DNA of 64,000 bases from Geosiphon pyriformis uo1 (taxonomy: Eukaryota; Fungi; Glomeromycota): assembly GCA_016748015.1 (NCBI GenBank), contig JAAOMT010000703.1:1114255-1178254 (forward strand), in the 5' to 3' direction. Both the position numbers and the translations under genes were made by a program. This document shows, one piece after another, positions 4,801 to 55,178 of the stretch (the stretch's first letter is position 1; the number at the start of each line of letters is the position of its first letter). The notes beneath the pieces are model-generated. The model had not been told where the DNA came from, ran no database searches, and saw only the letters and a program-made list of their open reading frames with translations.

Positions 4801-6688
4801 GAGTGGTTCTTTTTGAATCTTTTATAGTTTTCTGTCAAGTTGTATGTTAATTCTGTAAATAATTTTTTGGCTGGTGTGATGAAAATCTTTTTGAAAAATG
4901 AACTGTCTTTGGCAAACAACTTGTTTAATGCTTTTTATGAATTAGAAAGGTTTTCAATATCTGGTATCCTAAAGCAATCTTTGTATTACAACTCTGTTTT
5001 TTTTAAAATGGTTTAGTGTTGCATTTGGTGACAGACTTCTGAACAAAAAAGAGAATATAATGAATTGGAAAACATTTTGGCAATAGAAAAAGTTGGATCC
5101 AAAAGGTCTTATATCTTATTGGTTTATGCTGGCATCTGAGTTTATAAGCAAAATTGGTTTTTTAGAGATTGGATCTGCTGTTGCTCCCAAATTGCCTGTG
5201 CTAAATGTCTTGAAATTCAAAGAGTTTTGCAATGTTCATAATTGTTTACTGAAAATTTGGTCTAATTATATTAAGATTTATACAAATAGGTTTTTAGAAA
5301 GTGCTAGTTCTACTAAAATGACAAGTAAAGTGGCTGTTTATTTTCTGACTGCAGATGTGAGTATTGAAATTAGAGTGCATGGGCTGTTGTTTTCTACTTT
5401 GGTTAAGTTACAGACTATTGCATTGGCTTTAAAGTGTGTTCTGTCTTTAAGTGCTATATTTGGATAACCAATCTGCAATTAGCATTTATGTGTCTGAGAC
5501 TTCATTTGCAGTATTTGATTTCCACAATTAATGTTGAATTAAGAGATTACAAATAGTCAATCTTATTAAGAATAAAAACATTTTAGTTAAGTGGGTAAAG
5601 ATTAAAAGACATTCAGGAATTCTGGACAATATTAAGGCTGATAAACTGGCTGGCAAGACAACTTTTTTTTTCTTTTCTTTGCATATAAAAATTCAGAAGT
5701 GATTTTTGGTTACTGAGAATATTGTTGTGTTTGGTAATACTTGTTATTTTATTTGTAATCTGTCTTGGTCAATTTGCTGTGCTTATTAGAAAGCTGGTTC
5801 TGGTTTTAATGTTGTTCTAAATGTTATAGTTAGGGAAATAAATTGGACTATTACTGTGATAGTTTGACATCCTAACTTATACATGCTCTTTGAATTTACT
5901 AATAAAAAATTGGCTAATCTGTGCACATATATGATAAAAACAATATATAGACAGCTACTGGTAGTGGTTAGAAAGAGATTATATAACAGGAATTATTCTA
6001 GGGTGTTGTGCTTACTGTACAATAAGGTGGAGTTTTCTGACTATGTTTTTATTTGTTTTGATAACATTGGTCTTCATAAGGACATTTTGACAAAAACTGC
6101 TAAAAAGTAAGTATTATTGTTAAATTTTTCTTACTCACCTACTTTTGTCATTTTGTGTTTACTTTTGATATATGCTTCAAATGTAATTCTGTACACTGCA
6201 ATTTGCAAAGACTTTGTGTTAAGAAATTGGTATGCTGAGGCTGTTATAATCTTTGAGGAAAAGAAAAAGATTACTTTGATTCTAATTAAATATACTTAGT
6301 TTGTGGTGGAGTTGCACTACACTAAAGTGTGATTAATTAGGTCTAAACATAAGGTGAATATAGAAAGGACTGGTTTGGTTAAAAATAATAGTTTGATTGT
6401 GACTTGTATTACTATATGGTATTTATATTGTCAAATAGATTAGTTTGTATGCTTGGTATTATAAAATCTTTTGCTGTTAATTTTGGTAGACACAAAATAT
6501 GTCATTTCTTTTCTGGTTTAAGTGGTAATGCTTTTATTAATATAGATATATAATATTGTCTTGACTGGCCCAAGTGGCTGGCCATATATAGTAAATGGAT
6601 AAACTGTATTTAGTTTAATCTACTTAGTTTGGTTCTATGTACTAAATAGCAGTTGGATTTTATTCATTAAATCTTATAATAAAAAAAA
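1810..6688 (+). mobile_element. LINE L1 (APE-RT-RNase H non-LTR retrotransposon); 5' part displaced by element E
   Basis: ORF1 tail ...DLSSQ* overlaps the ORF2 start (caATGA, 1875-1878); ORF2 remnants; 3' UTR; poly(A) at ~6681-6688. Confidence 0.9.
1875..6553 (+). pseudogene. LINE L1 ORF2 (endonuclease, RT, RNase H, C-terminal Zn finger), many stops
   Basis: WKFATYN and GDFN (APE); IPKP and FIND (decayed FVDD, RT); IYTNRFL/LQTIALAL/KIKRHSGILDN (RNase H); CLL...SDYVF-C. Confidence 0.9.
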
Positions 6689-6932
6689 TTAATAAATTTT
6701 AAATTTAATAAACAAATTTGCAAAAAACATAAAATTTTAATTTTTAATATTTATTTACTTAAAAAAATTAAAAAATTTAATATTACTATTTATAATTCTA
6801 ATAGCTATTTTATTATTTTAATTAATTACTTAAAAATTAAAATTATATATAGCAATATTTTTCAAAAAAAACTGTCATAAAAAGTTTTAAATTTTACAGA
6901 ATGAATTGATTATTTACTTTCAAAATTCAAAA
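6689..6932 (+). mobile_element. Fragment of old host Gypsy D (pre-RT linker)
   Basis: decayed NITIYNSN resembles KIPIYNNT of B; frame continues across the HAL TSD into 9228-9326. Confidence 0.45.
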
Positions 6933-9227: not shown

Positions 9228-10899
9228 AAAATTCAAAATAATTTTTATTATTAAAAAATTATTTTTATTTAATATAAAACAATTAAAATTATAATTTAAG
9301 CAATTTATTATAAAATATGTTAATATTTTTTTATTTTATTACAAGTTTTACGAGTGAAATCCAACTGCTATTTAGTACATAGAACCAAACTAAGTAGATC
9401 AAACTAAATATAGCTCACATACTAACTACATGTGGCCAGCCACTTGGACCAGACAAGACAATACTATATGTTTATACTAACAAAAGCATTACTATCTAAA
9501 CCAGAAAAAAAATGACACAATTTGCATCTACCAAATCTAATAGCAAAAGATTCTATAATGCCAAGCATATAAACAACTCTGATTAACAACATAAATATTA
9601 CACAGTAGGACAAACCCAAAACCACACTGGTATTTTTAACTAAGCAAGCTTTTTCCATATTTACCCTATGTTTGGTCTTAACAATCCATACTTTAATGCA
9701 ATACAATTTCACCACAAACCTAATATATTCTATAAGGGCCAGAGCAGTTTTATTCTTTCTTTCAAAAACCAAAACAGCTTTAACATACTAATCCCTCATC
9801 ACAAAATCTTTACAAACAGCAGTATACAAACTCACATCTGAAGAACATATCACTAGTAAATACAGAACAGCAGAATTAAATAAATATAAAAGACTGGATA
9901 ACAATATCCATTTCTTAGCAGCCTCAACCAAAATGTCCTCATGAAGACCAGAGTTACCAGAACAAGTAAAACTATAGTCAGATAACTCCACTTTACTACA
10001 CAGCAAGCATAATACTTCAGGATAACCTCTGTTATACAACCTTTTCTTAACTGTAACTGGTAGCTGTCTATAAACTGTCTTTATTAAATATGTACACAAA
10101 TTGGCTGATTTTCTGCTAGTAAACCCAGAAAGCATGTGTAAATCAGGATGCCAAACTATCATAGTAGTCCTCCAATTTATCTTCTTAATTATAGCACTTG
10201 AAATAATATCAAAACCAGGACCAGCCTCCCAATAGGCATGACAAATTAATTGGTGCAGATTATAAACAAAATAACAAATATTGCCAGATACAGCAGTCTT
10301 TTCAGCAACCAAAAACCTCTTTCAAATTTTAATTGACAAAGAAAAAAAAGAGAAAGTAACATCACTAACTAATATATTAGCCTTAATATTGCCAAGTACA
10401 CCTAAATAGTCTTTAACTTTTACTCATTTAATTGAAATGTTTTTATTCTTAAGAAAATTGACTATCTGCAATCTTTTAATTCAACATTGATTATGAAAGT
10501 CAGACACAATAAAAGAAGCTTCAGACATGCAGGCATCTATTGCTAATTGGCTATCTAAGTACAGAACCATAGAGCATAAAAGTGGAACACATTTTAAAGC
10601 CAAAGCCACAGCATACAGTTTAGTCAAATTAGAGAACAAAAGCCTGGCTATCCTAACCCTAATATCTGTGTTTACAGCTGAAAAATACACAGCTGTTTTA
10701 CTTGCTATCTCAATAAAACCAGCATCTTTTAAAAATCCATTTATGTAGACTTTAATACAATCAGATCACACTTCTAACAAACTATCACAAACAACAGAGA
10801 ACTTTACAGAATTCAAAACATTGTTATTCATAGAATAGAAGAAGTATATTATTATTAACAAGTAGAAATTAGCCAATCAGAAGTAGACATAGTAAATGT

Positions 10900-11049
10900 A
10901 GAATTCCAGGATTCCTCTCAGAGGAATTGCAGAATTCCAGGAATTTCAGAATTCTCTGGCGAGGAATTGTAGGATTCCAGAATTCCAGAATTCCTCTCAT
11001 CAGGAATCGCAGAATTCTTGTCACAAGGAATTAAAGAATTGAGGAATCT
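10900..11049 (+). repeat. GAATT(C)/GGATTC micro-array in U3 of LTR B
   Basis: many g(a/g)att(c/g) units between CCAAT and TATA; also at 20231-20380. Confidence 0.8.
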
Positions 11050-11343
11050 CAAATATGTATATATAGCAGTAGCATTAGAAGCAAAAAAGACAGAATCGCC
11101 ACCAAGAATCTTTAGCTTAGTTACCACAATCCTCAAATAAATAATTATTTGCTATATCAAATTTAATTTTCACTATCAACACTTCATGTTGATAGTAACT
11201 GATACTTAATCATACTGGAATAATAGCTCTTGATTATGGCTATTGACAGGCTACTAACTTGCAAATCACCTTGGCTTATTTCTTATTTTCTCTTTTATCT
11301 TTTCTTTATTTTTCTTTGTTGGCTACTAACTTGATTGAAGGAT

Positions 11344-11463
11344 TTACTCTTAAAGGACTTATGGAGAAATAAAACTTACTTAAACAATACTTACTCTTGG
11401 AAGACTTATGGAGGAATAAACTTGCTTAAACAATACTTATTCTTGGAAGACTTACGGAGGAAT
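11344..11463 (+). repeat. 46-47-bp tandem repeat (~2.5 copies) in LTR B
   Basis: ttactcttggaagacttatggaggaataaa(a)cttgcttaaacaatac repeated. Confidence 0.85.
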
Positions 11464-11735
11464 TGACATCAGGAAACAGCACTGGTATACACTTATAGAG
11501 AATATTGTACCAGAAGAATCATCAACCATCCAGCTGAGCAAGCAATTGATAAAACTACAGTTTCAAAAAACTACTAATAAACTGTTATCTTTGAATCTCT
11601 GTCCATTATACAAAGAACTCAATTGGAAAACCTTCAGATAAAATACCTTCAGATTATCATCATCATCAATTGCTTTGCGTACCAAGTTATGAATTTGTTA
11701 TTCACTTGACACCCCAAAGAATCACTTATAACATT

Positions 11736-11796: not shown

Positions 11797-14700
11797 GTGG
11801 CAGAATCAGAAATTATAGGAGCCAACCACTTAGGATTTGCAAAATCCTTGTTTTAACAATACAGCCAACAATTAGAATTAAACAGTAATCACTACCCAGC
11901 CGAATCAGCCTTCAACTTCTACATCAATGATAAAATTACTGACTGTTTAGGAGGAATGGTAAACATTGAATCAGCCAGAGAAAACTTTTATACGGAACTG
12001 TTTCAACACACCAACTTACTAAGGAACTATAGTTTTGCACCAATAATCAGAGAGATAAATCAAAGTATTGAAAGATACATACAGCAACAATTCCCCATTA
12101 CCTATGCAGATAAGGGTAAAAGAAGAATACAAACACCAACAGCAACACCAAAAAGAATACAATTACTTAGTTGGAAAAAACACAGAGTAAAATCACCAAC
12201 CACTCTATTATATCACTATACACTTGAAAGCACCATCAACATTTCATCAATAGACATGTCCACATTAAACACGACATCAGCATTTGGACATTTCCCATTC
12301 CAAAGTAAACAAAGGAAAGAAGATCTACTAGAACTATATGGCGAGTATTTTGAAGAATTTAAATCTCAATCACTGATGCCATCAGAATTTCGATTACCAC
12401 CACCTCAACCAAATTTCAGAATTGCGAGTTTTTAGGAAATTACTAAATCAGAAAGAGAACAAGAAGTAAAAGAGGAAGAAAAATCTGAGGATCAAAAATT
12501 TACTTACCAAAACCTGATCCTAGAAAACCCAGAAATTGAAACTCCGAATATTCAAACCCCACCAAATCAGAACAATCTAAACTCCGAAGTAATTAATCAA
12601 AACTTACCTTCAGTAATCATCATTGATCAACCACTGATTAATCCAATAGCCGAACCCATACAACAGCCACTTCAATTACCATCCCAACAACCCATGCAAC
12701 AACAACTGCTTCAACAGCCATCACAATAACTAAACGTAAACCAAATGGCCTACACACCCATTGCAAAGTTAGAAAACTTTACCAGTGAAGAAGATGATGC
12801 TCAAGCATGGATCAATAATGTCTCCAAGGCCATCATAGTGAACAATTGGGACAATGCCAAAGCCCTACAAATGATACCATACTTTCTTAAAAAAACCACC
12901 AATTCTTGGTATCAGAGTTTAGCTGTCAAACTACAAACATTCTAACAATTCAAAACTGTCTTTCTGGGATATTTTAGTAACAATAACAGTATTAATTGTC
13001 TAGCCAATACTTTTACCACAATCAAACAGAATAATACTAAAGCAGTTACAACATACCTAAGATGCTTTTATAAAATCCTACACCAAATCTAAGCCATTGA
13101 CGCCATGTATTTCACAGAACCCCAGATCCTCAACCAGTTTATTCGTGGCCTGTACAGTAGCATTTTGCAACACATATGCCCATTACACCCAGCCAATCTT
13201 CAAGCTACAGTTATACACATCAGAGATTTTGAATCAGCCGAGCTAAAAGCCAATCACACTCAAGCTGTAAATTTAGTAATGAATGGATCATCTGATTTGG
13301 ATTCCAAATTGAAGCAAATTAGTGATACCATCAATCAGAAAATCAAGGGATACTTAGCTAACAACCATCAGTCTATTTATCAACCTCCCCAAAGACACAG
13401 TAATTAGGGAAACACCAATCATTTCCAAAATTAAGCACATCTATCATTGTCAATTAATCAACCATGGCAGCAGAAAATGCATGTCTGTCACAACTGTGGT
13501 AAACAAGATCACATAAGAGCCAACTGCAACACTTATAACCAACAATCGGGAAATCAACATAAAAACTCTGATCCCCAATTCCAAATCCAGAATTAATATC
13601 AAAATCAAGATCAATACCAAAACACTTACCTGCTAATGACACAGCAGCCAATTTATTAAGCACCAGTATATCAGACCCCGGTTTATCAATCACAGCCACC
13701 AGCAATATATCAACCACAGCCATTTGTAATATATCAACCACAGCCACAAGTAATCTATCAATCTCAAACCATTCAAACACCACCCCAAAACTTACCTCAA
13801 CATGGAACCCAAAGACCGAGAATGACACAACAAAACTGAAAATCAGCAATGGTTGTCCACCAACTGATCCCCAGTTCTTTTAACACACCATCAGGATTGC
13901 ATTCTCAGAATTCGGGTACCAGTGTCACCCAAAACCCAAATTCTCAGAACTATTTAAGTCTCCTGGTTACCTTAGAAGACACTACCACCAACAATTTGGG
14001 ATCCAACTAACAACAAGCACTTACCAACAACATTCTACCAGCAACTGTCACCAACAATGAATTGCTTGCAATCATCTTTCCCTTTAACTTGGAAGAAATG
14101 ATCGAAATCTCATTGTTCAATAAAGCAGCTCTTAAAGAAAAGCCAATCACTGCCATGTATACAGATGCCAAAATTGATGGCCATGCCATCAAACTGATCT
14201 TAGATAGTGGATCAGCTGGCAGCATCATAACAAAACAACTCATAAATCAATTAGGTCACTGAGTTAACCAAGCTGCCAGTACAAGGATCATTACAGCTGA
14301 TGGAACAACCAAAACTCCAATAGGTGAAATAGACAACCTACCTATCGAAATTAACGGCATTATGGTACCCATCAAAGTCCTTGTAATAGAAGCCACTCAG
14401 TACCAAGCTCTTGTTGGAAATGATTGGCTATCCAAAACAAATGCCGTACTTAATTGGACAACACAAGAGCTCCAACTGAGCCAAAATAGTCAACATACTT
14501 GGGCACCAGCAGTATGTGGCCACTTTAAACCAACCAACTCACAGCCACTAATCAAATTGAAAAAAGAAGCAAAGAAACCAATATGGAAAGTGTATCAGGT
14601 TTTGTGGGCTGACGTTGACTACAATAAACTGCTGCCCATACTTGCCTGGGACAAAGACAACTATGGAAAAGGAAAGCAGAAAGAAGAACATACCTGGGAA

Positions 14701-17700
14701 ACCACCATTGGTGCTTGGATTGATGACAACCAAAATGAGTTGCCACCTACACTAAGTTGGAAAGAAAAAGGGAAAAGAAAGAAAAGAGAAGACAACATAC
14801 TAGAGGAAACTGAATCAACAAAAGATACCACCAGTGGCTGGACTTGTTCATACTCCATTCATGAGCCACTACCATAACCACCATACATACTGCTCAAATG
14901 CAAAGACTATGGGAAGAAACTTTCTTCCATGGAAGCATGGATCACGCCAGACGAAGACTACTAGATGCAAACCCACTATTATTATAAGCCATGTCATAAA
15001 AAATGCTATGGCTACCCAAAGAAACAGGGCAAGTGGGACAATGAACCATGCCTCACTTATGGCAAACAATTACTCGATGAAAGAATATGGAATAACATTT
15101 CTGGTTGAGGAGGAATGTATAACACTTTGTGCCAATACATGATCCTTATTAGTAACTGGGTGAGTCATGATACCCCAATTACAGCAGCATGGCACCAAGT
15201 ACTCGATTGTTTAGACAGTTACCCCCACAATAAAGAGGAGATCTGGCAAATGGCCAATGCCAAAGTAAAAGGTACTACACCCAGTGAAATACTGGAAATT
15301 AAGAACAACCCTCCAGAACTGGTTAATATCATTCATATTCCTAACCCAGATGCTTTTATAGATGAAGAAACAGATCCAGAAGACTTCCACAAATACTACC
15401 AAAATTTGGCACCTACAAAAGAAGAGCAGGAGCAGTATTTAGAACAACTAAACACCCAATTATGTGACCACTGTTTGATTCTCTGTGACTTCCAATATTG
15501 TAATGAATGTGACCTTATTTACAATCCACTACCATGCATGATCTACACAATCCCAGAGGAAATTGAACCAATCAACAGCTGTGCATCCGAATCAGAATTA
15601 CTGTTTGATCCCAATTTAAACTCCGACAATGATGACAACAAAAACACTGGTTCCAGCTCTGTTCAAATTGGCGATAACAACAATGACAATTCCAACTCAG
15701 ATTCAAACTCTGACCCAAAATATGAACAATACATTGCACTGCCAAACCTCTCCAAAGAACAGGAGTTGAAATAGTATAATGACAATAATGAAAGTATCAT
15801 GCCAGAACATGCGCATAATACTAATGCTAGGTTTAATCTGAGATATTCTGGAAAAGATGTTATAAAATTGGAACCACATTTGTGCACCTGCATAGATCTG
15901 AAAGTAGCACTAGAAATTCTAGCAATAACAATGGTTCAACTAGTATCTAGAAATAATTTAGCAAAAAGAGAGATTAATATAAGAAGAGGAATAATTGATG
16001 CAGGATATGTAAGAAATATTATTGCTATGCTACAAAATGACTCTGAAAAAGCCTATATCATAGAGCCAAACAAAAAAATAGCACAGGCAATATTCCTGTC
16101 TCTGGTGAAAATAGCTCAGTTAGTATTAGTGGGAAATAGGGAGGAATTAGGGATAACAGCAAGAAGAATACAGGGATTTGGATCAATGAATAGAATAGAT
16201 GTACTAGTCAATATGGCAGAAAAAAAAATTGTTGACCAAGGAGAAATTATCTCAATGGGTCAAGCAATTTCTATTCCACCATATGACTAGTACATGGTAA
16301 GGATAAAGTGGGAAGTAAAAAAACAAAATCAGATTTTTGAAGCAAAAACAACTCTTTATGAATCAAGAGAGATTGGATTTATCAATCTCCATATACCAGC
16401 CAAAGATTACAGCCACATCAAAATTCCCATCTACAATAACACAGGAAATGTCATAGTAATACCAGCTGGAATTACCATTGGATACTTAAGCAGTGAAATA
16501 GAAGATTAACCACCAAGCACCATTCCAGATTTTTCACAGCTTTGTGAATATGTGGACATTACATCACAAACAATATATGGACAAAGTGAATGTTATTTGC
16601 TCCAACCAAAGCAATTGGAACAAATAAACATGGGAGACTTAGATTCACTCCAATGTATGCAGCTTAAGATGTTGCTTAACAATTTCAATGACATCTTTGC
16701 CAATGAAAACAAGTTTGGCCGAACTGACATCATCCAGCATCAGATTAAAACTGGAGATGCAATGCCAATTAAACAAAGAGCATACAGAGTACCACCAGCT
16801 AGCCATGAGATCATTTGTCAAGAAATAAACCAAATGCTTAACAATGGGCTAATTCAATCATCAATGAGCTCATGGTCATCACCAGTGGTACTCATCTGGA
16901 AGAAAAATGGAAAAATCTGATTTTGTGTGGACTACAGGAAACTCAATGGTGTAACTCGTGGAGACAGCTATCTAACTCCAAGAATACAAGAATTATTTGA
17001 TGCTTTCAGTAAAAACAAATAGTTCTTAACATTAGACTTGGACAGTGGTTACTGACAAGTAGCCATGAATCCAGCAAACAAAAAAAAGACGGCATTCACC
17101 ACTAGAAAAAGGAATTTCAAATTTGAAGTAATGCCATTTGGCTTAACCAATGCACCAGCCACTTTTTAGTGATTAATGGAAATCGTTTATACTGGCTTAT
17201 TATGGAAATCAGTAGTTGTATACTTGGACAACACCAATGTATTCTCAAAAACATTTGATGATCATCTTCATTATCTTCAACAAGTGTTCGAAAGGCTAAG
17301 AAGAGCAGGACTAAAGTTAAATGCAACAAAGTGCTTCTTTAGCAAAACAGAACTAAAATTCTTGGAACACATAGTCAGTAAAGACAACATCAAAATGGAT
17401 CCAAAGAAAATAGAGATAGTAAAGAACTTTCCAGTACCAACCAATGTGACTAAATTGAAATTATTCTTGGAATTTGCAAGCTATTATCGGTGCTTTATAA
17501 AGAACTTTTCAAAGATAGCTAAACCATTTAATAATCACAAAATATGAATGGACAGAAAGTCAACAAGAAGCTTTTAATATTCTGAAAAAAAAGCTCATTC
17601 AAGTTTCAGTACTGATCTATCCAGATCACAACAAACCATTCATCATTACCACTGATGCATTAGGCCAAACATTGGGAGCAGTACTATTGCAGAAAAGACC

Positions 17701-18010
17701 AGATGAAAGAGAACATCTAGTGGTTTATGCAAGCCGAGAGTTAACCCCAGCCGAAAAGAACTATAGAACACCAGAACTGAAATATTTGGCAATCTACTGG
17801 GCAGTCATAAAATGGAGTGAATATTTGAGCCAGAAGTTTAATGTGTATACAGATCACAAAAAATTAACATCACTTCAGAAGCAAGAATTTGGAGACGGCC
17901 GCCAATCCAGATGGAAAATGGCACTCTTACGATATACTTATACTATACACTATAAGAAAAAAAAAGACAATGAAAATACTAACAGTTTGTTGCAAATAAG
18001 ACAAATCTAA
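11797..18010 (+). pseudogene. Gypsy B gag-PR-ZnF-dUTPase-RT-RNase H polyprotein
   Basis: ORF fragments 11956-17547 all in one frame; knuckle CHNCGKQDHIRANC; protease LILDSGSA; RT YLDN (decayed YLDD); RH TTDA..YASR..YTDH. Confidence 0.9.
15799..16195 (+). pseudogene. dUTPase domain of Gypsy B
   Basis: five motifs recognisable: ARFNL (AGFDL), SRNNLAK, GIIDAGYV.NI, KIAQAI, R.IQGFGS. Confidence 0.92.
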
Positions 18011-18072
18011 GAACATTTCAAACCCAAAAATATAACAAAACCAGAACAATACTAACAAAAATATAACAAAAG

Positions 18073-19455
18073 ATGAACATATAAAAATATCAACAACTTT
18101 AACATTATATAAACACTTAACAGTTCAAGAAGAATTTATCTTAAATGAAACGAAAGAGTATCAAACAACAATCAAAATATTTTATCACCTACCAAAATAT
18201 ACTTTATCAGAAAAATAGAAAAAATCTAGATCAACTAACCAAAGTAATTACAGAGCCAGAAAAAGAAATAATATTATTCAACATGCACTCAAATCCAACA
18301 GCAGGACATTTTCACAAAGAAACAACCATAGAAAAAACCAGAAAAAGATACTATTGGCCATCAATGTATCCAAACATCATTCAATATGTTCAAAATTGTG
18401 ATGCTTGTCAGCGAAGAGAAGGAACAAGACCCAGTGAACCATTAAGACCAATCAAAGTAAGACAACCATTTGACCATATTGGAATTGATTTAGTCAGACT
18501 ATTAACAATTACCAGTAGAGGAAACAGATACATAGCAGTAGTCATGGACTAACTCACTAAATGGCCAGAGGTGAAAGCAATTCAAAGAGTAAATGCAGAA
18601 TCCATTGCTAAATTCATTCATTAGGATTTGATTTGTCGACATAGATGTCTAAAAAAATTATTATCAAACCAAGAAATGCATTTTGTGAACAGAACATTAA
18701 CAGAATTGAGCCAAAGATTCAGAATTAAGAGACTATTATCATCACCATACCATCCACAAACCAATGAATTAGTCGAAAAATTCAACAGAACATTGTGTGA
18801 AACAATAGCTAAGCTCAGCCAAAAAAACCAGAATGATTGGGATTTGTTAATACCATCAGTACTATTTGCTTATCAGACAATGAAGCAAGATACTATACAA
18901 GCAACACCATTTAAATTAGTATATGGTAGAACAGCAATATTACCAGTGAAAATAGAAGTCAGTACATACTCAACTGAACCAATAACAGAAGAAAATTTCA
19001 AAAACACATTGTTGAGAAGAACATATGACTTAATGGAAACATTAGAAAACAAATGACAAAGAGCAGCTGATAATATACAAAAATTACAAGAAAAACAAAA
19101 AGAAAGACATGATAACCAATTACCAGATAAACCAGTTAAATTCAAGATTGGAGACAAAGTACTACTACATTGTACCAAAGTGGAAAAACAATGAAATGGA
19201 AAATTTGACCCCAAATGAGACGAACCATTTCACATAGAAGAAATTCTAGGAAATAAAGCTTACAAATTAAGATTGAATAACAAAATCTTGACCAAAGCAG
19301 CACATGAAGATCGACTGAAATCATATCACCATATAGTATCATCATCTACTAGTAATATTCCACAACTGGGAGTACAGAGAAAACTAGTCCAACCAGATGA
19401 GATTCCACAAAATCTGGAACCAATCATCATTATTGATAACAACATATCCAATTGA
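18073..19455 (+). pseudogene. Gypsy B integrase, separate ORF
   Basis: own ATG; H..GH..YYWP..CDAC zinc finger, IGIDL, SPYHPQTN, FKIGDKVL SH3/GPY-F-like tail. Confidence 0.88.
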
Positions 19456-19509
19456 TCAACAGAAAGAATATATAAAGGCATAGTCAACACGACAAAAAAA
19501 TGCAGAAAA

Positions 19510-20139
19510 ATAGAAATTATTAACAACATCCATTCATTAGCACAACAAATCTTCTAATTAATCCAACACCAGGAGATGGAAATTACAATCAATCAACAAA
19601 CCATTTGATACAAAAGTACTACAAGAATACCATAACACAAAGTACAGAGAAAACTCGAAAATATTGTTGACAAGATTATGACCAAAGTAAAATTGGTCAT
19701 AAAAGAACAACAAATAGTCAGATTACACCAAGAACTTACTGAAGAAACTTGGACTTGGTGGATGCAACAATTTCCGAAAAACTATTGTCATTTTCACTTG
19801 AAACAACATGTAAATATCCAGAATTTGTACACCAACAAAACAAAATGGTTATTTGACACAACAATACTGAGACAACTGAAACAATTTGTGGGAAAAAACA
19901 ATCTAATCACACAAGTTTGAACCATTTACCAGCTATATATGGGATTTCAAGACCAACCAGAAATCTTACTCAACATGGCAATGGATACAGTTACGAGTAA
20001 TCAATTGGGGAAAATGACCAATGCCCAATTTGAAGAACTACAAACTCAAATAACACAAGTAATACTCGAAAAAGAAGTTCAAAAAATAATTCAAAAGGGA
20101 AAATTAAAAGAGTTAGATTTTGACGGAGCTCAATATTAA
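19510..20139 (+). pseudogene. Gypsy B ORF3, unknown function
   Basis: frame contains ORFs 19678-19920 and 19939-20139; homologous to 53766-54500; start read as ATG>ATA; ends DFDGAQY*. Confidence 0.75.
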
Positions 20140-20152
20140 AAGGAGAGAATAA

Positions 20153-21053
20153 TGTTACTCATAGAATAAAGGAAGTATATTATTATTAGCAAGTAGAGAT
20201 TAGCCAATCAGAAATAGACATAATAAATGTGGAATTCCAGGATTTTTCTCAGAGGAATTGCAGAATTCCAGGAATTTCAGGATTCTTCAGCAAGGAATCA
20301 TAGGATTTCAGAATTCCAGGATTCCTCTCATCAGAAATTGCAGAATTCCTGTTATAAGGAATTAAAGAATTGAGGAATCTCAAATATGTATATATAACAG
20401 TAGCATTAGAAGCAGAAAAGACAGAATCACCACCAAGAATTCTTAGCTTAGTTACCACAATCCTCAAATAAATAATTATTTGCTATATCAAATTTAATTT
20501 TCACTATTAACACTTCATGTTGATAGTAACTGATACTTAATCATACTGGAACAATAGCTCTTAATCATGACTATTGATGGACTACTAACTTGCAAATTGC
20601 CTTGACTTATTTCTTATTTTCTCTTTTAGCTTTTTTTTATTTTTCTTTATTAGCTACTAACTTAATTGAAGGATTTACTCTTGGAGGACTTATGGAGGAA
20701 TAAAACTTACTTAAACAATACTTACTCTTGAAGGACTTATAGAGAAATAAACTTGCTTAAACAATACTTACTCTTGGAGGAACTGACATCAGAAAACAGC
20801 ACTGATATACACTTATGGAGGATATCGTACCAGAAGAATCATCAACCATCCAGCTGAGCAAGCAATTGACGAAACTACGGTTTCAGGAAACTACTAATAA
20901 ACTGTTACCTTTAAATCTCTGTCCATTATACAAAGAACTCAATTGGAAAACCTTCAGATAAAATACCTTCAGATTATTATTGTCATTAATCATTTTGCAC
21001 ACCAAGTTACAGGTTTGTTATTTACTTAACACTCCAAAGAATTACCTGTAACA
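20153..21053 (+). repeat. Gypsy B 3' LTR
   Basis: follows PPT aaaaggagagaa; ~90% identical to the 5' LTR over the first 249 bp. Confidence 0.95.
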
Positions 21054-24000
21054 ACATCTAGCACATTTTTCCCAAGAACAGCAGTAGTTCCAACTCCCAA
21101 AGAAGCAGAATTGCTCATAAAATCAAATGCCAATGTAAACTAGTAAGACACAGAATCTCTCAAATCCAACTGCTTCCAACACTGAAATGTTTTTCAGTTC
21201 ATCATCATCATCTTCTTGTCAAGAAGTCTGTTACTGAATGCAATGCCAAACCACCTTAATGAAAAAACAGATTTGTAGTACAAGAACTAACCCAAAATAT
21301 CAGACATCAGAAAAACACCAGATCCACAGAAGACACAAGGCAGATTGTTCACCAATGACAACTTATTTGCTAAAAAAATTTTCACCACTTTTGCCAAAAA
21401 ATTAATCACAAAACTAACACATAACTTGACAGAAAATTGTAAAAAATTTAGAGGAAACCAACCCAAAACTTGCAAATTCAAAAATCTATGATCAAATAAA
21501 TGTCCAAAAATGCTGCAGCCATTAGAAAATAAAATTAGAGAAGCCAGCTTTCCTTCAAACTGCACTTGCTCAAAAGGCTTTAAATCATACAAAGATAGAT
21601 GATACAAAATCTTACTAGAGAAGTTATATGGTAAACTAGTCTTGGCTCTAAGATTCTTCTTAATCATTATGTCCCACTTGTAACACACATCCAAAAAAAC
21701 AAAACAAAACTGTATATAATAGCTAATAATTGGTTGCAAGACTGCTGAAACCAAGTAACAGAATTGTTTATTTGTAATAGTTTTCCTCAACACCACATTA
21801 GAAAAAAACTTGACATCTACATAAGCTTGAACCAAATTGGATTTAAAAAGATCCTTAGTTGACAAGAAGATACCCAAATATTAGTGTGACTTACCTTTTT
21901 TAGCAATCAAAATTGGCAAACTATTAATTAACAGTAAAGCATTCTTAATATCTTGATTAATAGAAATAACTACTGTCTTATTGTTATTAATTGAGATGTT
22001 ATTGATTACAAAAAACTTACTTGCAATGTTTAAAATATACTGTATAGAAGTCTGACAACTTTTAATCCAAATCATATTATTAACAAAGGCATTAGCAGCC
22101 AAAAAAGAAGTTTTCTTTTCAACAGTCTTAATTCTGCCAAACTTTGCCACAAACTTGCTATCAATTCTGTATCTACACAAGTGTTCATGCCTTTTCATCT
22201 CACACAAAAGTGGATCATAAAAAATTCTCCAAAGGAATAAGGAAAAAACCTCCCTCTAATTCAGCCTATCATGAACCCTGTATCCTTCTGAGAGCCCAAA
22301 GTTTGTTATCACTTTGTTGATCTTATTCTCATGAATGTTGCCAAAAAACCTAATAAAACGTTTACATATTTTAATACAATACAGGCTTGCCTTTAAGTAA
22401 TGCCAATCTACTGAATTATAAGCTTTGTACATATCCTGTAGCATCAACCAAAGCTCTCTATTCTTCTCCAGAACATTCTCAATAACTAAACCAATAGCAA
22501 AAATAGGAGACTGGGTTGAAGTACCTTTCAATACTGAAAAATTATTACCATGAAGAACATTAAACTTGCTACAAGCCAAAAATATCTAATTAGTTAAAAT
22601 CTTAGATAAGATTTTATATATAGTATTAACTAATACAATAGGTCTAGTATTTGTCAAAACACTATTTTATTTGTAAGGTTTTGGGATCATTGAAATTCAT
22701 GTTCTTTTTCAGGGAGCCAAAATTATATCCAGATTTAGACACAAATTTAACAACTTTAAAAAACAGACCAAAACTTCTTTACCACAATGTTTTCAAAGTT
22801 CATTGAATATTTTTGACAATCTGACTGCTTTATCATTTGGTAGATTATCAATAACCAAAGACAATTCACCCATACCAATATTTTCTATTATATTAAAAAA
22901 AGCATTTTTATTTATATAATCCAGAAGCATATATTGTTGAGACCAAAGATTAGACATATTTAGGAATACTAAGTGCTTTTTTGTTTACTCTTCTATAATT
23001 TCATCAACCTTGAGCTTTATTCTATCAGGTCCAATTACCAGCTTATTATCTACTATCAAGTAATTCAAAACCACTTTGTAAAATGGATATTTTAGAATAC
23101 TCTTTATCATCTGCCTTTTGTCAGAACAGAAATTTTCTATATGACTGTTAATTGTCTTTTGAATGACTATATCTTCAACAACCTTAACTTCACAATACTT
23201 AAATCTCCAATACTTTTTTCTCATTACTGATAAATGTCTAATCACATCTATTGAATCTGCATTATCCAAAACTATGTTAGTAATTTTGAAAGCTTTAACC
23301 TTATCAATAGCTGACCAAACTTTAACAAGACAGTTAAAATTCAGAAGATTACCAAAATTCCAGCATTACACAATTTTTGCAACAAGCTGTTCTAATTTAA
23401 AGAATTTTGAAAATTGTTTATTCTTTGAACAATTATATTTATTATACCAAATTTTAGAAAAAACCACATTAACAGCTTGAACTATGACTTCTTTTAGCAT
23501 CTTCTACACTGTATTTAAGTTACCATTGCTTCTTGTATCCTTAAACACCTTTGACCTAACCAGTATTTTAACAGAAGAATAGTCTTTAAAGCCCAACTAT
23601 TGGTTGTTGTCTACATTCCCCAATTTGAACTTTCACCAGTCTTGGTTGGCTTGCTTGTGAACACTGAAAAAATGAGCATCCAGAAGTTCACCCAAACCAA
23701 TTGAAACTAAAACTGACTTATAATCCATATTGAAAAACTCTGACACATCATCAACTTTGTGTAATGCAATTGCAGACACCAAATTCCAATTCACAAAAAT
23801 AAAGTCAATCACTCTCTCAACACTTCTAGAATTGCTCCAAATAGAAGCTTTGGTTAGCAAGTGTCCATCAAAAGTGTTAACCAGGCCCAAACCCAAACAG
23901 AACTTGAAGCTTGCATTCCTCTTAGATTCATTCTTATTAAAATCACCACCCAAAATCACAAAAAAGCTGAAATTAACTGTCTTAGAAACCATAGAATTAA

Positions 24001-24387
24001 TATTAGCAGCTTGGCCAAAATGTGCACCAAAAGATATACCAGCATAAAGACCCAAGATTATAACTAAAAGCCTGTTTTTGAACAGAAGACATATTAAAAT
24101 CAGATGACCAGAAATTTCATCCATCTTTGACACATGTTGAGTCAAAAAATTGTTTATGATTATAACAACTCCAGCACCACAAAAACCAGCATCCAAACCA
24201 GAAGTGAAAACCCAGATTTCATTAAACTTATTTGTAATCCAAGGCCTAATATTAGATCTCAACTTTGTTTCAGTAATAATAAAAACCATATTACCTAAAT
24301 CTTTATGCCAATGAACAATATCATTCTGTTTAGCTAAATTTGTTATGTCCCTAATATTGCATGTAGCTATCTTCCAAATAAGCTTAC

Positions 24388-26238
24388 TCATTGATGCAAA
24401 TAATGTATCAGGAAGCCCAAATTTACATACAACAGATTTAACTTCCTTAAAATTGAGCCAATAGAAACTTCAAGAGCTACTATCTTAGATTCCAAACCAC
24501 TGACTTTGAAAATAAAAACTTTTGAACTACTCAGACCCAAATCCACAATTTTGTCCTCTACCACAGAAAATGGAGGAGAAAAAGATGGCTGTGGGATATT
24601 CAGAACCATATCAATATTTAATATTGACAGTATAGAAGTAAGAATAATTGAAAGTCCAACTTGAAAAACAAACACTAAGAGCACCAGTTCTACACCATTT
24701 AATTTGTGCACAATACTTAACACTTGATTAGCCAGCAGTTCTGAAAAGTATTCTAATAAAGCCAGATGATTGTTAATTGAGGAACTATCTTGAACAACCA
24801 GTGTGCACCCTCTATTATTTAAGACACTATGAAAAAAAGAACCAGATTCTAAACCTGAATTAAAATAAGAACCATCAGAAGAAGAGGCAAGTAAAACTAT
24901 TTGTGCTCAAAAGTTGTTGCCAAAAGCAGTAAAACAGAAAATAGGAATACTTTTTTTAGCATACAGCTTTGCCAGCTAAAGACAATGCACCTTTGAAGTG
25001 ACTCTTTTAACTAACTTTGAAGACTTAGAGGTAGACACAGTTGGTTTATCACACTCTAAAACAGAATGACCAAAATGCTCACATTTTTTACAATGAACCA
25101 AATCTAATCTAATTCAAAAAAGTTTAACACGACCAAATATTGGCTCAGTACAATAAGCAGATTCCAAACTCTCTTTAGATTCAAAGCCAATTACAGCACA
25201 GTAAACTCAATTACCAGACTTCATTAAGCAATTAATGATTCAGATTTTCTCACTAGCTTTATCCAAAAAAGTGACCAAATTATGAGCAGTTATTCCTATT
25301 GGTAAAGTATATAGCAGTGCTCTAAATCAATTTCTAAATGTCCAAGTCTCACAATTCTCTACTGTTTTAGCTATGTAAATTAAGTTCTTCTCAATTAAGA
25401 AAGACTATTTAGAAGCCAAATATACAGCCTGACCTAATTCAGCAAATTCCACCACAGTCTTTTACTATATTCTAATCAGTTGAATTTTGATTGACTTAAT
25501 TTCACCAAACTCAGCTACTACAGCAATGATTATTTTCTTAAACATGTCCATAGGAATTTCCTTAATAATTACAGTTTGATTTGAAAGCATTCTTTGTTTT
25601 TTGACATTAACACTTGTGATAATTTCTTTCTTTTTGGCCAATAAGACAGTCTTCTTCATGTTGATCTCTGAAATGAAAATAAATTAAATGATATCTTTAA
25701 ATTTTGAGGGAATAGTGGCTCTCTTAAAACCATTAACAGATGAAAATTTTTTCTAATTAACTGAGTTTTTGCTGTAACAGATTTGCTTTCTACTGCCAAG
25801 AAATTGATATCCAAAGTGAATAATTTCTTAATAACAAATTTTACAGGAGTTTTTACAATTTTGGGATCTATTCATCTCTTGTCCAAAGATATACCAAGAG
25901 AAGGTGAAAGAAGTTCCACTTTTTTTTTTATGTTATAATTGGGAGAACCAAGAGGGGATCCAAGAATCACATTAGTATTCACTTTTTTTGCTTTAGGAGT
26001 ATTAGCCACCAAGCCTAAAAGAGACCTGTTGTTAATACTTTCCATGATTATGTTTTTTTTTCCATAGTTAGACTCACTATCCAAATCTAAATACGTGCCA
26101 TCAGAACCAGGTTTGACTAAAAAAATGTCTTTTTCATCACCTGAATGCTTAATATTACTTAGAACAACTTTTTTTTTTGGGAAAAAAAACCACCAGTAGG
26201 ACCATAGAAACATCTTTGGGCATTTTTTTTTTAGACAT
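24388..26238 (-). pseudogene. LINE L2 ORF1 (RRM plus CCHC)
   Basis: ATG 26238; VIIKEIPMD..FGEIKSIKIQL; CxxC..GH..C near 25060-25095; stop overlaps the ORF2 ATG. Confidence 0.85.
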
Positions 26239-26391
26239 GTTACTGTTTGAAGCAGTCTTTAAATCCACAATAAAAGAGTTATTAGTTAAAAAAATAGTAA
26301 TATAGACTAACAAGAAAATTAAAAATAAAAAACTTCTTTTTTAGAAATATATTTTTTGGGGTTTTTAGAATGTAAGAGAGAAAGAAGTTTT

Positions 26392-27293
26392 TATGTTAAT
26401 ATATTTACAAAAAACTAATTTGGTTTAATATTAAATTTATATAAAAAATACAAAACCAAAATAATAATAAGTTTATTATTACTTATTAGTTATTAATTTA
26501 TTAAATAGATATTTACTAATAATTTTATACAATTTTAATTAAGTTTATAGACTTTATTTATAGTTTTAGTAAAAAAATAAGAAAATCTAATTTGTGTTAA
26601 CTATTATTAATTCAATAGTATTATAATTAAAAATACTTATTTTTTATTATAAATTAATAATATATTATTTGTTTTTAACAAATTTAAGTATTTTTAAATA
26701 TTAAATCTAAAAAATAAATACCAATAAGTAATAATAAATTTTAAAAACCATTCAAAAATAGCTTTTATAACATAAAAAAAACTATGAATTTAAAATAATA
26801 TCTTATAAATTATATAATATATTAGTAATATTTTAATAACTTATAAATATTGATTATTTTTAAAACTTATTTAATTTATTTATAAAAAGTTTTTTAAAAA
26901 TTATAAAAAGCAAGATTAAAATTAAACATTAAAAAATACAATTTTGGTAAAATAAATTTGGTTTTTTTTGGTTATATTATTAGTAAAATCAAAAAAATTA
27001 GTATTATTAAAAATTTTAAAATTTCTTAAAACATTATTAAATTAAAAAAATTTTAATTTTTTAACTATTTAATTAATAAGAATATTAAATACCAATAAAC
27101 AGTAAAACAACAAATTATTTTTAATATTTTTAATTTTGATTTATTTTAACTTTAATAAAAAATTTTAATTAATTATTAATATTTTAATACTGCTTTTAAT
27201 ATTATTTTATCTTAATTAAATAATAATAACAATAAAAAATAATTGTATATGCCAATAAAACCTTAAAACCAATTAAAAAAATTATTTAATTAT
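26392..27293 (+). mobile_element. Eroded RT-RNase H region of host Gypsy D
   Basis: back-reading A>G/T>C gives VVLVKK..CVDYR.LN..TIKDAYPLP.IDD, LDLKSGYWQV, KTAFIT, YASKTLKP.EKNY. Confidence 0.75.
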
Positions 27294-30200
27294 TGTTATT
27301 CAAATAGAAAAACCAATACAAAACTATAAAAAAAATACAATTAATATGTAATAATATAAAAAAATGTAATAATATGAAATAATACAAAATAACACATAAT
27401 AACTTAAGATAATACAAGATAATATATAATAATATAAAATAATACAGAATAACTAATCATAATATAAAATAATTAATTATAATATAAAAAATTAAAGCAA
27501 TAATAAAAATAGTAAGCAATAGTTAATAATAATAAATAATTAAAAACAATTTTATAAAACTAGAAAATATGTATAAAAACAAGTAGTTTTAGTAAATAAA
27601 AAAACAAACAAAAGACAAAAACCAATTTTTTTCTAATATTTTATCTTATTTTTTTATATTTTTGTATTAATTATTTAAATAAAAAATTTATTATTCAATC
27701 TACTTATATATAATTTCAAAATTTATGTTATCAAAATCAAATTAATTATTTTTTTATTTTTATTTCAGATTAAATACTATTTGCATAAACAGTTTCAGAA
27801 TTTTAACAACTTAAACCAATTACTTTTAATTATTGTAATTAATAATATTAATTTTTTTTCTTTTTTTCTCTTATTTTTATTTTTGTTTTTTCTTGTTTTT
27901 TTTTTTCTTGATTTTTTTTTTTTTTGCAAAGTAACAATATTAGAAATTAACTGTTTAAGAATAAACTATGTAATAATTTGATAAAAAAAAGAAGCTCTTC
28001 CTAAGTTTAAATATTAATTTTATCTTGTTAGTTTATCAAAAAAGTGCAAAGACAACATTAAACTTTAGCAATTATATTCAACTAGCTTAAAGAAAATAGC
28101 TTATATTTACAATTATAAACTGTCCAAAAATACATTTTTGTGTTTATAGTTAAAGAACTCTATAGATTAATTTACATATGAAAAAACTTTCAAAAACTAA
28201 TATATTCTAATATGTTTTCTGTCTATTTAAAACAAAAACTAATACATTCTAATATGTTTTCTGTATATTTAAAGAAAATTTTATAGTTATTTTACTCAAA
28301 TTCAGAATACTAAATATTACTACAATATCTTATTAGAATTTATCTGTAATATTTAGTACTTTCTGTAAAGTTATAAAATTTACAAAAACATTTCAAAAAT
28401 TTACAAAAATAATAATTATTAAGACTATAAAAAAAATCATTTGCTATTTAAAAAAACATTATATTATCACTTTAAAAAAAACTTAAGAATATTAATAAAA
28501 ACTATTATTACTAAAAGTAATTTTATTTATTAAACCAAATAACAAATACTGAAAAACTTTGAAAACAAATTCATCAAAAATTATTAGCATATTCAATTTT
28601 AATTATCACAAAAGCTATAACTAAAACTTTTTTCTAATTAACAAAAAAATTGAATTATATATTCAAAAACAGTACTCTTAATTAAAAAGAAAACAAATAT
28701 CAAAATTTGACTCTAAAGAATCTAAGTTTAACTTTAATAATAATACACAAATTATATAAAAAAAACTTTACCTATAATTAATAAAAAATTAAGATTTTTT
28801 TTATTAATTACTCTTTTATATTATTAAATTCTAAAAAACAAAATCTTACTTAATTAACTTATTAAATTACAATCAAAAACTTTGAAAACTTCTGAAAATT
28901 TTTACTTTTGGAATTTTAATTATAATCTTTGAACTAAATTCTTAAAAGAATATAGATTTTTGTTTAAAAGTTTTATTTCAATGTTATTAGAGATTTTTGG
29001 TATTTTTTTTTGAATATTGTTATTGTCATTTTGTTGTAGCTTTATTATTATTGAAAGCTATTAAATTTCTAATAACTGAATTTATCTTCAAATTATCTCC
29101 TATAATTTGAATTGCTAAACTTATAAGTAAAATAACTAATTCTATGTTGATTACTTATATAGTTATTTTGCAATAAAAGTCAACTCTTTTTCAGAAATTA
29201 CTTATCTAAAAGCTTATTAAAATATGTAGTTATTTTACAGTAAAAGTCAACTCTTCTATAGAAATCTTGTCTATAAGCTACCTTAATATATATAATAAAA
29301 AAAGTAAAAAAAAATAAAAAAATGTAAAGAAAAAAAAATTTTGTTAAAAGAATTGTTTTTTGTTTAAGCCTAAAATTATTAAAAAATTATTGAAATTAGT
29401 AGCTAATTAATTTCAAAATATTAGTTGGATTTCAAAGAATTTTAAGTGTAATTAATTAATAATTTTTGTTTTTCAAAGTATTTCTAAGATAAGATGATTC
29501 TAAATTAGATAAAATAAGATAGAACAAGATATATTTTCTTAAAAAGAAAAGTTTTTTTTTATACAATTTGTTAAAGTATTAGTCTATAAACTTAAACTTT
29601 TTTTTTTGCTATGATTTTGACAAACTAAAAATATATTTTAATAAACTACATATTATTTTTACAAATTATAAACTATTCTAATAAATTATCTATTATTTCG
29701 ACGAATTTTTACCAATTTTGACAAATTTTTAAATGTTATATAGTTCAAAGTATTGTGTAATCTAATTATTTTAATTTCTATTATACAAATTACATTATTA
29801 ATTAAATAGTAATATTTGATAGTTTTGATTAAATAATAAATAATAATTGAAAAAATAATAATATATGCTAATTAATAATAAAAATCATAAAAATAATTTC
29901 ATGTTAATTAATAATTAAAATTCTATTAGTAATACTAACAATTAGTAATTTAGTCAAAAGCACTTTTTTTTAACACAATTTTTATCATAGCTCTTAATTA
30001 AATTAATAACTATCTTCTTAAAAAAAATTTTTTATTGTAACTTATTATAACAATTAACAAAAAAAACAACTAGTCTTAAGTTCAATAAAGCAATCAGACA
30101 TATTTTATCAATAATTTTTTTGTCAACAATTAAACAAACTCTTATCACTTAGGTTATAACTTACAAAAATATTACTAGACTAGAAAAATTTTTCAGTAAA

Positions 30201-33200
30201 GAAAAAAATACATATATATGAATTACAAAAGCCAAAAAAACAATTACAATAAACAATTAAAACAAAACTAAAACAATTCAAGCTCTACTTTTTTTTAACT
30301 GAAACTGCAGACTTGTAATACCAAAATCTTGATAAAAAACTGACTGACTTTATTATTTTTAAACTTGCTTTTTTATAATATCTTTATGACTTAAATACAT
30401 TTATTAAATTACAAAATTAATTTAGCATAATAATAAAACAAAAAAATTATGAAGCTATAATCACTTATCTTAAAAAATTCAATCAAACTTTCTGCCAAAT
30501 TCAGATAATTGAAAGAAATTATTATACTTTAGATCAAATTTTCAACCAATTTATTAAAAGACTAAGAAACAATATCTTTTAATCTGTTAGATTCTAATAT
30601 TTTAACAACTTATAAGAGACAATAATACTTGTTTATAATTTTGAATTAGCAAAACAAAAAGTCAATTATACTTAAATTATTAATTTAATCATAAATAGAA
30701 CCTTAGATATTAATATAAAGCTTATCTAATTAAATAAAAATTGACTTAAAAAATTAAAAAATCTTTTATTAGAAACTTAGAAACTTATTTACTATTACAA
30801 TATAAAAAAAATACCAATAAATATCAACAATAGCAATATTGTTAACAACAATAGCAATCCTAAAAACAAAATCTTTATAATTGTTATTATTGTTAAAAAT
30901 CTGGTTATATTGTAAAAAATTGCTACAAGAAACTATCAAATTAGAATTATAAAAACCAATATTAACAACAACTTAGATATTTACAATTTATAAGATTTTA
31001 ATACATTTTGTCTTTATATTAACAATCTCATTACTTATTTTAAACATCATAAAATTATTATTTATATTTACAAACAATATTATAAACATCATTTTAGTAT
31101 TAAGATCTGCTATATAGCAATCCAAAACTTTAAATTATTAATTATAATCAAGAATAATAAAACAACAATAAAAATCAAACTCAATCTATTATAGTATTAT
31201 TTCGAACTATAAATTATAACAATCTATTATTCTAAACATTTTTAACAAAATATTCAAACCAAACTTTATATTTTGGTCTTATAAAAACTTTAAATTTCAG
31301 TAATTTTGTATCTTTAAAAAGAAAAATTATAATTAAAATTACCAAAATTTTTTTTCTTTTAGCAATAATAAGACTATTTTCAATATAATTTTTTCTGATA
31401 TAATTACCAAAAATAATATATTTATTGCAATATTTTTATTTAATATTAACAGCTTAAACACTACTAATTTCTTTAGCAGAGCTATTATTAATTAAAACAA
31501 ACTAATTATAACAATATATATTGAAGCCAAAATAGAACAAATAAATATTAAACTAATATTTAATAGTAAATTAGTGGACAACATAATTATAAAACAATTC
31601 ATAAATTAATTAGATTACAAAGTAGATTGTATAAATACTATTAAAATAATTACTATAAATAAAAATACCAAAACACTAATAAAAAAGATTGACAATTTTT
31701 TTTTTAATATTAATAAAATCAAAATTTAACTAAGTACTTATTATAAAAATTATTCAAAATTAAGCTCTTATAAAAAATAATTAGTTAATTAAAGTTTATA
31801 CTATGTTTGACTAGAATACACAAAAACTTTAAATTACTTTTAATAAATAACACATTAAAATATTTATTATGTGTAAATATTTTAGAATAATAGTTTCAGA
31901 ATAATTTTTAATTAAATTTAAAAAACACTTTTCAGTTAATATTGAAAACTTATCATGTTTTATGGACTAATAATTTCAAAATAAAGTTATTATTATGTTT
32001 CACATAAAAAAAAAGTCAGAAATAGAACTAACAAAAAACCACAGACATTAATATTAGTCTACTTAATTTCAAATCAAAAAAATTAATTATATTAACTTTC
32101 AAAATTAATTTGTATTAATTGTAAAAAGAAGTTATTCTTAATAGATGTATATGTTAAAAACAATAAAGTATAGCCAATTGCTATCAGATATTATTATCAT
32201 TTTTGTATATTAAAACAATTTAAGTGATTAAAATAACAAAACAAATAGAATAATACACTATATTTTATATATAATAAAATCTTATCAGATAAAAAACTAT
32301 AAAATAATGTCTTTAACAAAGAAAAAACATGCAATAAATTCTGTTAATACATTATTCTAATCAATAATTGGGCCCAAAAAAAACTTTATTTACTACAGCC
32401 TATAGTTAAACAATAAACCAACTGAATTTATACTTTTATAATAAAAAAAAAATTTGGAAAATAACTACTGTAAAGTAAAAAAACATAATCAAAAAAATAG
32501 ATATTATAAAAAATGTTTTAATAATCATAAAAAAAATAGATAATTTATTTACTAATAACTTTGAAGCATTTTAAAATTAGTATTAAGAATTTGTTCTTAT
32601 TCAAAAAAAACAAAAACAAGAATTAACCAACTTCAATACAAAACTGTGTAATTATTATTTGATTTTTTGTTATTTTCAATATTGTAATAAGTGTAATTTC
32701 TTGTTTAATCTATCTTTACAAACATTTTATCTTATTCTTAAACTTAAAAAATTCAAGAAAAAATACATATTAGCAATAGAAAACATAATATTTTAAGAGT
32801 TAAGTATGATTATTAAAATAAAACAGTATTTTGTCTATCTTGATTTTTCTAAAAAATTAGAACTAAAATAATATAACAATAATAATAATAAAATATTCCC
32901 AAAAAAAGCACATATAAATAATATTAAATTCGATTTAAAATATTTTAAACAATCTTTTATAGTTATAATATTTTATTTTTTTATAAAAATAGATCTAAAA
33001 TTAGCTTTAGAAATTTTTATTAGTATTATAGTCTAAATTGCATTCTGGTTTAGCCTTGTAAACAAAAAAATTGACATTAAAAAAATAATTAATACTAAGA
33101 ATATAATTATAATACTTTAAAACAATTTTAATAAGCTTTATATAATTAAATTTTAAGAAAAAATTACACAAATTATCTTTTTATTTCTTATAAAAATTTT

Positions 33201-44800: not shown

Positions 44801-45367
44801 GTCATCATATCTTTTAAAACTGAAAAATTGTCCCCATGAAAAATGTTAAAAGTGTTGCATGCCAAAGAAATCCTATCAGAGAGTATCTTGAAGAGGATCT
44901 TATAAGCCATCTTAATTAAAACAATAGGGTGAGTATTTATGAGAACTCCCTTCCATTCATATGGTTTAGGAATTATTGAGACCCAAGCCTCCTTCCAAGA
45001 TCTGGACACTGATTTGCAAGAAAGACACAAGTTCAAAAGTACCAAAAAAATATCCAAAATTGACTTGTCACAATGTTTCTAAAGCTCATTTGTAATACCT
45101 AAAAGACCAGCAACTTTGCCATCAAGCAGATCAGAAACCACATTAAGCAACTTGCTAAACTCAACTGAATGCATTACACCAGAAAAGGTCTTATTAAAAA
45201 CATGATCCAACAGCCAATATTGACAAGACCAGACATTAGAGACATTAGCAACCACACCATACTTCCTGGTCCATTCTTCTATAATAACATTCACCTTAGA
45301 TTTAACCAAACTGGGCTTCAAAATAAGCTTATCATCAACAATCAGATGGTCCAGAACCACTTTGTGG

Positions 45368-55134: not shown

Positions 55135-55178
<44 letters not shown>

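Follow-up and report, generated by a model that had tools for sequence, protein, structure and literature searches.

LTR retrotransposons are thought to load integrase (IN) into their particles within Pol, and foamy virus Pol, which like the IN described here is made apart from Gag, is translated from a spliced RNA and retains IN. To our knowledge, caulimoviruses possess no integrase. They resemble the present elements in the close spacing of cistrons on one polycistronic RNA, for which CaMV has a transactivator (PMC10275272, in its available text). Further likenesses are found among Athila/Tat-type Gypsy elements with a YPYY-motif integrase, which share TG..CA LTRs, a primer site, a polypurine tract and the order PR-RT-RH-IN, and differ in that IN here forms a gene apart, opening at an AUG of its own and followed by a third conserved cistron (ORF3) of ~150 aa. 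Ginger1 transposases are likewise stand-alone integrase-type proteins of ~400 aa that carry H2C2 and DDE domains and begin at the same N-terminal helix, and share with one element of the window (B) a 4-bp target duplication. However, in place of the terminal inverted repeats and absence of RT-RH that define Ginger1, the present clade has LTRs and also encodes gag, PR, RT and RH; the INs of the window end near 440–460 aa, and P0005 has no protease tail by Pfam. Whether Ginger1 transposases derive from Gypsy integrases, or the reverse, is a question set out by Bao et al. (2010; PMC2836005), and a lineage with a separate IN bears on the direction of that descent.

Downstream enzyme genes are also known from non-LTR elements. 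According to the available portions of PMC5972666 and PMC10275272, LINE-1 reinitiates across a 63-nt spacer, SART1 requires a structure downstream of the stop, and TURBS-type reinitiation operates with stop and start within about 20–30 nt of one another, with Kozak context irrelevant (the last from PMC10275272). As in LINE-1 and SART1, an enzyme ORF here lies behind a long ORF, and the LINE-1 spacer is matched by spacers of 62, 62, 63 and 65 nt in B, L007, L009 and C; in contrast, those elements are non-LTR and divided between ORF1 and ORF2, whereas here an LTR element is split inside Pol and reinitiation is a proposal by analogy.

The window, the whole 64,000-nt stretch of DNA that was analysed, consists of nested, decayed repeats that are poor in CpG and have a GC content of 14–39%. 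Element B, on the forward strand, is bounded by a 5' LTR (10822–11733) and a 3' LTR (20153–21053) that share TGTTA..TAACA ends and 89.5% identity, with a primer-binding-site-like TGGTGC 2 nt behind the 5' LTR and a 4-bp target-site duplication (ACAT/ACAT). A stop-broken region with aspartic protease and dUTPase lies upstream of RT (14263–16290), the protease matching Pfam RVP_2 at E 9e-4, under that family's cut-off, and the dUTPase, between protease and RT, matching PF00692 at 15775–16290 (E 7e-8). A dUTPase-similar motif can also be read upstream of RT in the translation of element A, at about 50000–50500. The RT-RNase H gene of B (16729–18010) ends at a TAA (18008–18010) and is followed by an A/C-rich, G-poor and ATG-free spacer of 62 nt (18011–18072) with no predicted structure, the 60 nt upstream of the IN ATG folding at 0.0 kcal/mol. 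The stand-alone integrase gene then runs in one frame from ATG 18073 to 19455, and residues 1–420 of the family profile match 18073–19338 with 516 bits. A decayed ORF3 region and then a polypurine tract (19456–20152) precede the 3' LTR. Troyka elements were considered as a designation; the CG..CG termini and 3-bp target duplication given for them in the available text of PMC12440569 are not those of B.

Element A is a full LTR element like B, on the same strand, with TGTTA..TAACA ends, a TGGTGC primer site, a purine tract, LTRs of 87% identity (45368–46459 and 54515–55574) and flanks (GTGG/GCAG) that fit a decayed GCGG target duplication. Its RT-RNase H gene (51011–52308) ends in TAA (52306–52308), and after a 9-nt spacer its integrase gene opens at accATGg (52318–53685). 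Element C lies on the reverse strand, with an RT-RNase H gene (61640–62940) ending in TGA, an ATG-free spacer of 65 nt (61575–61639) with more stops directly behind the RNase H stop, and an integrase gene (60263–61574) opening at ATG 61574. A Pfam scan of ORFs of at least 100 aa placed RT_RNaseH just upstream of the stop and the integrase domains downstream of it in B, A and C, and in all three the IN profile starts matching at position 1, the ATG, and continues in one frame. Nonsense changes are the only breaks within the first 430 IN codons (9 internal stops in B, 8 in A, 4 in C). Two further forward-strand junctions, A' (34740–34755) and A'' (41728–41743), show TAA, a 10-nt spacer and ATA where the start codon has decayed. 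These copies are heavily decayed (GC about 16%) and contribute little: A' matches the integrase profile at only 20–22 bits, A'' has no match to it, and the likeness of A'' to A and A' stops near 41877. The spacers of the window are G-poor and unfolded. All five junctions agreed to the letter with those described in the earlier note (18010/18073 in B, 52308/52318 in A, 34742/34753 in A', 41730/41741 in A'', 61640/61574 in C), as did the spacer lengths and the observation that four of the five copies are out of frame, A being the one in frame. The tandem of A' and A'' (26000–42000) shares LTR-like repeats, and its GC content near 16%, compared with 35% in A, reflects a much stronger loss of C and G.

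For the B family, conservation of the junction was assessed with DNA contigs of run X1, possibly the window's own source, of which 1,093 pieces were aligned to 17970–18110 and differences of at least 8% listed, contig depth being distinct from copy number. Differences were listed only at 18053, 18054 and 18058, along with a one-base gap at 18020, leaving both stop and ATG untouched. Because 84% of the depth at 18053 reads C rather than T, the TACTAAC that had been proposed as a branch point in B is private to that copy. Some X1 contigs fuse position 16255, the end of the dUTPase, to 18149–18152 (IN codon 26–27), skipping ~1.9 kb with RT-RH, and are possibly non-autonomous deletion derivatives.

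Relatives of the C integrase, used as query with X at its stops, included 348 proteins of 261–832 aa. Among the best 120 of these none matched RNase H; 87 begin exactly at the family Met, 27 further in, and six carry N-terminal extensions of up to 33 residues. A second search covered proteins of 768–2190 aa, and among the best 120 of 511 the three closest are eukaryotic gene models (P0125–P0127), two of them bearing RT but lacking the RNase H end and the IN start, and one joining Gag to IN; the others, of 31–45% identity, are mostly fused. Eighty metagenome and three viral loci were then compared, of which 12 clade members, all metagenomic, carry both RH and IN. In all 12 the RT-RH frame stops before IN, so that a continuous RH-IN frame was found in none, and in nine of the 12 an unbroken IN of 418–542 aa stands behind the stop. 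The spacers measure 89, 365, 163, 62, 63, 30, 727, 39, 74, −8, 110 and 278 nt; nine loci are out of frame and both phases are represented. L069, with an AUGA overlap of stop and start, is a thirteenth split locus, 23 more distant loci are labelled fused, and the remaining loci lack RH or are broken. Viral contigs gave only three weak integrase matches. The split is thus confirmed as a lineage-wide organisation of these Gypsy-type elements rather than decay, and the three-cistron layout gag-PR-RT-RH / IN / ORF3 put forward in the earlier note, with a separate and conserved IN start, extends across the lineage. The hosts that could be named belong to the Glomeromycota genera Rhizophagus (R. irregularis among them), Cetraspora, Entrophospora, Ambispora and Paraglomus, with one stand-alone IN in Lichtheimia; the lineage likely belongs to arbuscular mycorrhizal fungi, and the window's host would accordingly be a mycorrhizal fungus as well.

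Other parts of these loci vary. The gag-pol link differs within the clade (L011, L014, L007): the frames overlap, an in-frame stop stands behind PR, or there is a single ORF. Long acidic tails follow RNase H in some RT-RH ORFs (L007:2-4438, L014:3361-6702, L002:2-541), among them tails of 313 aa (L007) and 585 aa. Some of the tails contain Cys/His clusters, and none has a convincing Pfam match.

The start of IN bears several signals. A purine occupies position −3 at 22 of 25 IN ATGs, compared with 313 of 573 other ATGs (p = 7e-4) and 101 of 162 in-frame Met codons (p = 0.012), in keeping with a genuine start site. Within the 12 spacers of 163 nt or less a single ATG occurs where 8.0 were expected (P = 0.0016), and the seven IN-ORF3 spacers hold none against 6.0 expected (P = 0.0006), a count that omits the UAAUG of L001, which overlaps the IN stop and opens a short ORF. 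For the 11 of 12 short spacers that are free of ATG, the ATG-free zone extends a mean of about 46 nt into RNase H coding sequence; since the background is one ATG per 52 nt, the zone ends about at the stop. The three long spacers (278, 365 and 727 nt) contain 22 ATGs against 23 expected and so show no depletion overall, although their last 80 nt have none where 3.7 were expected (P = 0.019). Stop and start overlap as AUGGAUAA in L022, and AUGA recurs at the IN-ORF3 boundary of L005. Outside the loci with the structured element described below, no 5- or 6-mer was common to more than seven of the 16 spacers, and several of the top words were RNase H codons.

A 39-nt element was recognized 3–17 nt before the IN ATG in nine loci (L002, L003, L005, L007, L012, L017, L018, L024 and L026; for example L002:585-623 and L007:4463-4501). 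Its modelled fold is a three-way junction that contains a 5-bp stem and a CAnnGUGA loop. Of the cells, 94% pair, compared with 24–41% in slid controls; both partners vary in eight of the 13 pairs, and none of 500 shuffles reached the score. Given that the structure was drawn from these same, related sequences, the covariation supports but does not prove it. The eight element-bearing INs placed in the tree form one subclade (94 SH-aLRT). An Rfam search of 14 loci returned three chance-level matches and none to the element, and its motif pattern had no match in viral or prokaryotic contigs. When the RNA model was run against the window and the 83 loci, scores above 50 bits were confined to the nine training loci, the best match in the window being one of 19 bits in another repeat (3551–3604) without the stems. 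The element is described here as a new, putative structured RNA.

The synthesis of IN from these elements is best explained, tentatively and with somewhat less than even confidence, by termination and reinitiation on the full-length RNA of a tri-cistronic Gypsy-type lineage. Ribosomes would terminate after RNase H, the 40S subunit would remain on the RNA, cross the short G-poor spacer, or barely move where stop and start overlap, and reinitiate at the next AUG. A separate IN would need no protease cut from RT and might enter the particle by binding RNA or Gag, and independent packaging, as had been proposed, would follow from the layout. In the one subclade that has it, the 39-nt RNA would aid restart or IN binding; the copies in the window do without it. 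Reinitiation is favoured by the stop-bounded ATG-free zone, the recurrent overlaps and the 62–65 nt spacers like that of LINE-1. Against it, the long spacers are free of ATG only in their last 80 nt, which fits a start chosen near the AUG independently of the stop, and a TURBS-type process in particular is opposed by spacers above 30 nt in 10 of 12 loci and by the presence of UGGGA, the upstream motif of such a process, within 150 nt in only two of 22 loci. For ORF3, repeated restarts after a frameshifted pol (L011) would moreover be expected to give very little protein. Subgenomic RNA and internal entry stay candidates in view of the structured element, the long spacers rich in ATG and the strong context of the start, and the mechanism may differ between subclades. 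Internal promoters giving IN and ORF3 their own capped subgenomic RNAs would leave spacer length free, as its range of −8 to 727 nt appears to be, would account for the clean last 80 nt of the long spacers, and would suit scanning to a start in strong context. TATA-like boxes within 400 nt are found in all three long-spacer loci, at −347 (L004), −249 (L014) and −45 (L035); however, the DNA is AT-rich, only five of 22 loci have such a box and 17 do not, L022 has three ATGs in the 60 nt upstream of its IN start, and the ATG-free zone ends about at the RNase H stop. We rate a promoter-based origin as rather doubtful. Cap-independent entry at the IN AUG, by way of the structured element or, in other subclades, of an A/C-rich unstructured spacer, is unlikely: the conserved junction ends just before the AUG with two-sided changes, and in L007 and L002 it sits after the stop, where it could hinder plain scanning, but neither the other loci nor the junctions of the window have it, it lacks an Rfam counterpart, and it was derived from the nine related sequences that display it.

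The earlier note had named reinitiation and a spliced mRNA as candidates, and it is the former that gained from the comparison. Splicing could bring IN to the 5' end of an RNA, as in foamy viruses, or remove the stop as part of an intron and yield a fused RT-RH-IN. The gene models P0125–P0127 do join RT/RH or Gag to IN, and in L007 both IN and ORF3 are preceded by pyrimidine-rich stretches that end in AG; yet the three models join at differing places, with the RNase H end and IN start missing from the two that bear RT, and the branch point seen in B is private. The 'gctaat...tttctccag' of C, put forward as a splice clue, falls within RNase H codons (E-A-N...F-S-R). For four of the 25 IN starts the upstream 60 nt lack an AG, and no common 3' splice pattern, acceptor position or branch point was found, although an acceptor further upstream, within RNase H coding sequence, is possible. 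Splicing is on balance improbable. Very improbable is a fused Pol made by readthrough or frameshifting, or a split that is decay after all. In A (9 nt) and L009 (63 nt) the frame is kept across the spacer and meets no further stop, and readthrough could hold for single families. As a general rule both readings are excluded: IN lies out of frame, in one phase or the other, at nine of 12 loci and in four of five window copies, it is unbroken in nine loci, and the Met and its context are conserved. Termination and reinitiation remains the preferred reading for the lineage.

The lineage has the Ty3/Gypsy features of TG..CA LTRs, primer site, polypurine tract, 4-bp duplication (in B) and the order gag-PR-RT-RH-IN, and departs from the rule that IN is the C-terminal part of Pol. 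In an RT tree, built without Copia, BEL or retroviral outgroups or named GyDB references, the clade nests among fused elements: a group of 98 support unites 14 of the 15 split elements with L069, P0126, P0129 and ten plant-type loci, L035 lying outside. An IN tree of 147 rows, which include an unbiased representative search, has a branch of 100 support whose 62 rows comprise seven Ginger1-like, 45 stand-alone and 10 fused sequences, the fused members scattered inside it. Neither the IN nor the RT trees are rooted by an outgroup. Split elements were monophyletic (99) in one quick IN tree; this was not recovered in the careful and larger trees, and an AU test did not reject it (p = 0.24). By RT and by IN alike, the fused elements placed nearest are the plant-type loci L028, L041, L042 and L064, which from their motifs, and with no named reference in the set, we take to be Athila-like; unnamed plant-type elements are sister to the clade in the quick tree and nested in the careful and larger ones. 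P0130 and P0206, presumably Ginger1-like from their OTU- or Ulp1-bearing domain content, join the clade with 100 SH-aLRT in the 147-row tree and 100/99 in the careful tree. A free-standing IN may even be ancestral to the whole YPYY-integrase branch, with the fungal elements linking Ginger1 transposases to LTR retrotransposons, Athila-like Pol a later re-fusion, and a three-gene RNA run by reinitiation or internal entry with a new class of small structured RNA helping one subclade; this scenario is speculative, and we regard it as more doubtful than not by a wide measure. One fused Pol within the clade (P0169) retains a Met at precisely the residue where IN would begin, a single case of what would be expected of a recent re-fusion.

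In the literature searched no Gypsy lineage was found described in which IN has a gene to itself; Repbase, Dfam, GyDB and subscription journals lay outside that search, and the layout may already be catalogued in one of these three databases. If IN is made on its own throughout a large lineage, its translation and packaging must take another route. In mycorrhizal genomes the separate IN genes appear to be mis-joined by gene finders, and intact split elements could be misjudged as broken.

The third cistron encodes 119–230 aa from its own ATG and, in eight of 13 loci examined, lies −4 to 129 nt behind IN; in L001 and L007 it extends to the purine tract. Its products make up a family (27 matches) with no Pfam match at the curated cut-off. 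The predicted model is all-helical (pLDDT 89), with no Foldseek match at E ≤ 0.001 and no clear fold match in VIA (best Z 5.7). Atlas matches of 0.92 with 130–138 shared features, to a closterovirus coat and a RegA-like repressor, serve as leads only, and nothing in these results points to an env glycoprotein. Within the window the ORF3-family profile matches A alone, weakly (54240–54419, forward strand, the C-terminal part; 11.4 bits, E 0.0036), and neither B nor C. More repeat families surround these elements, at 1872–5186, 21076–24394, 42000–44982 and 56362–57032, and at 5258–6751 paired with 9271–10768; with an RNase H match at 42770–43339 and endonuclease-like motifs in translation, these are probably LINE copies.
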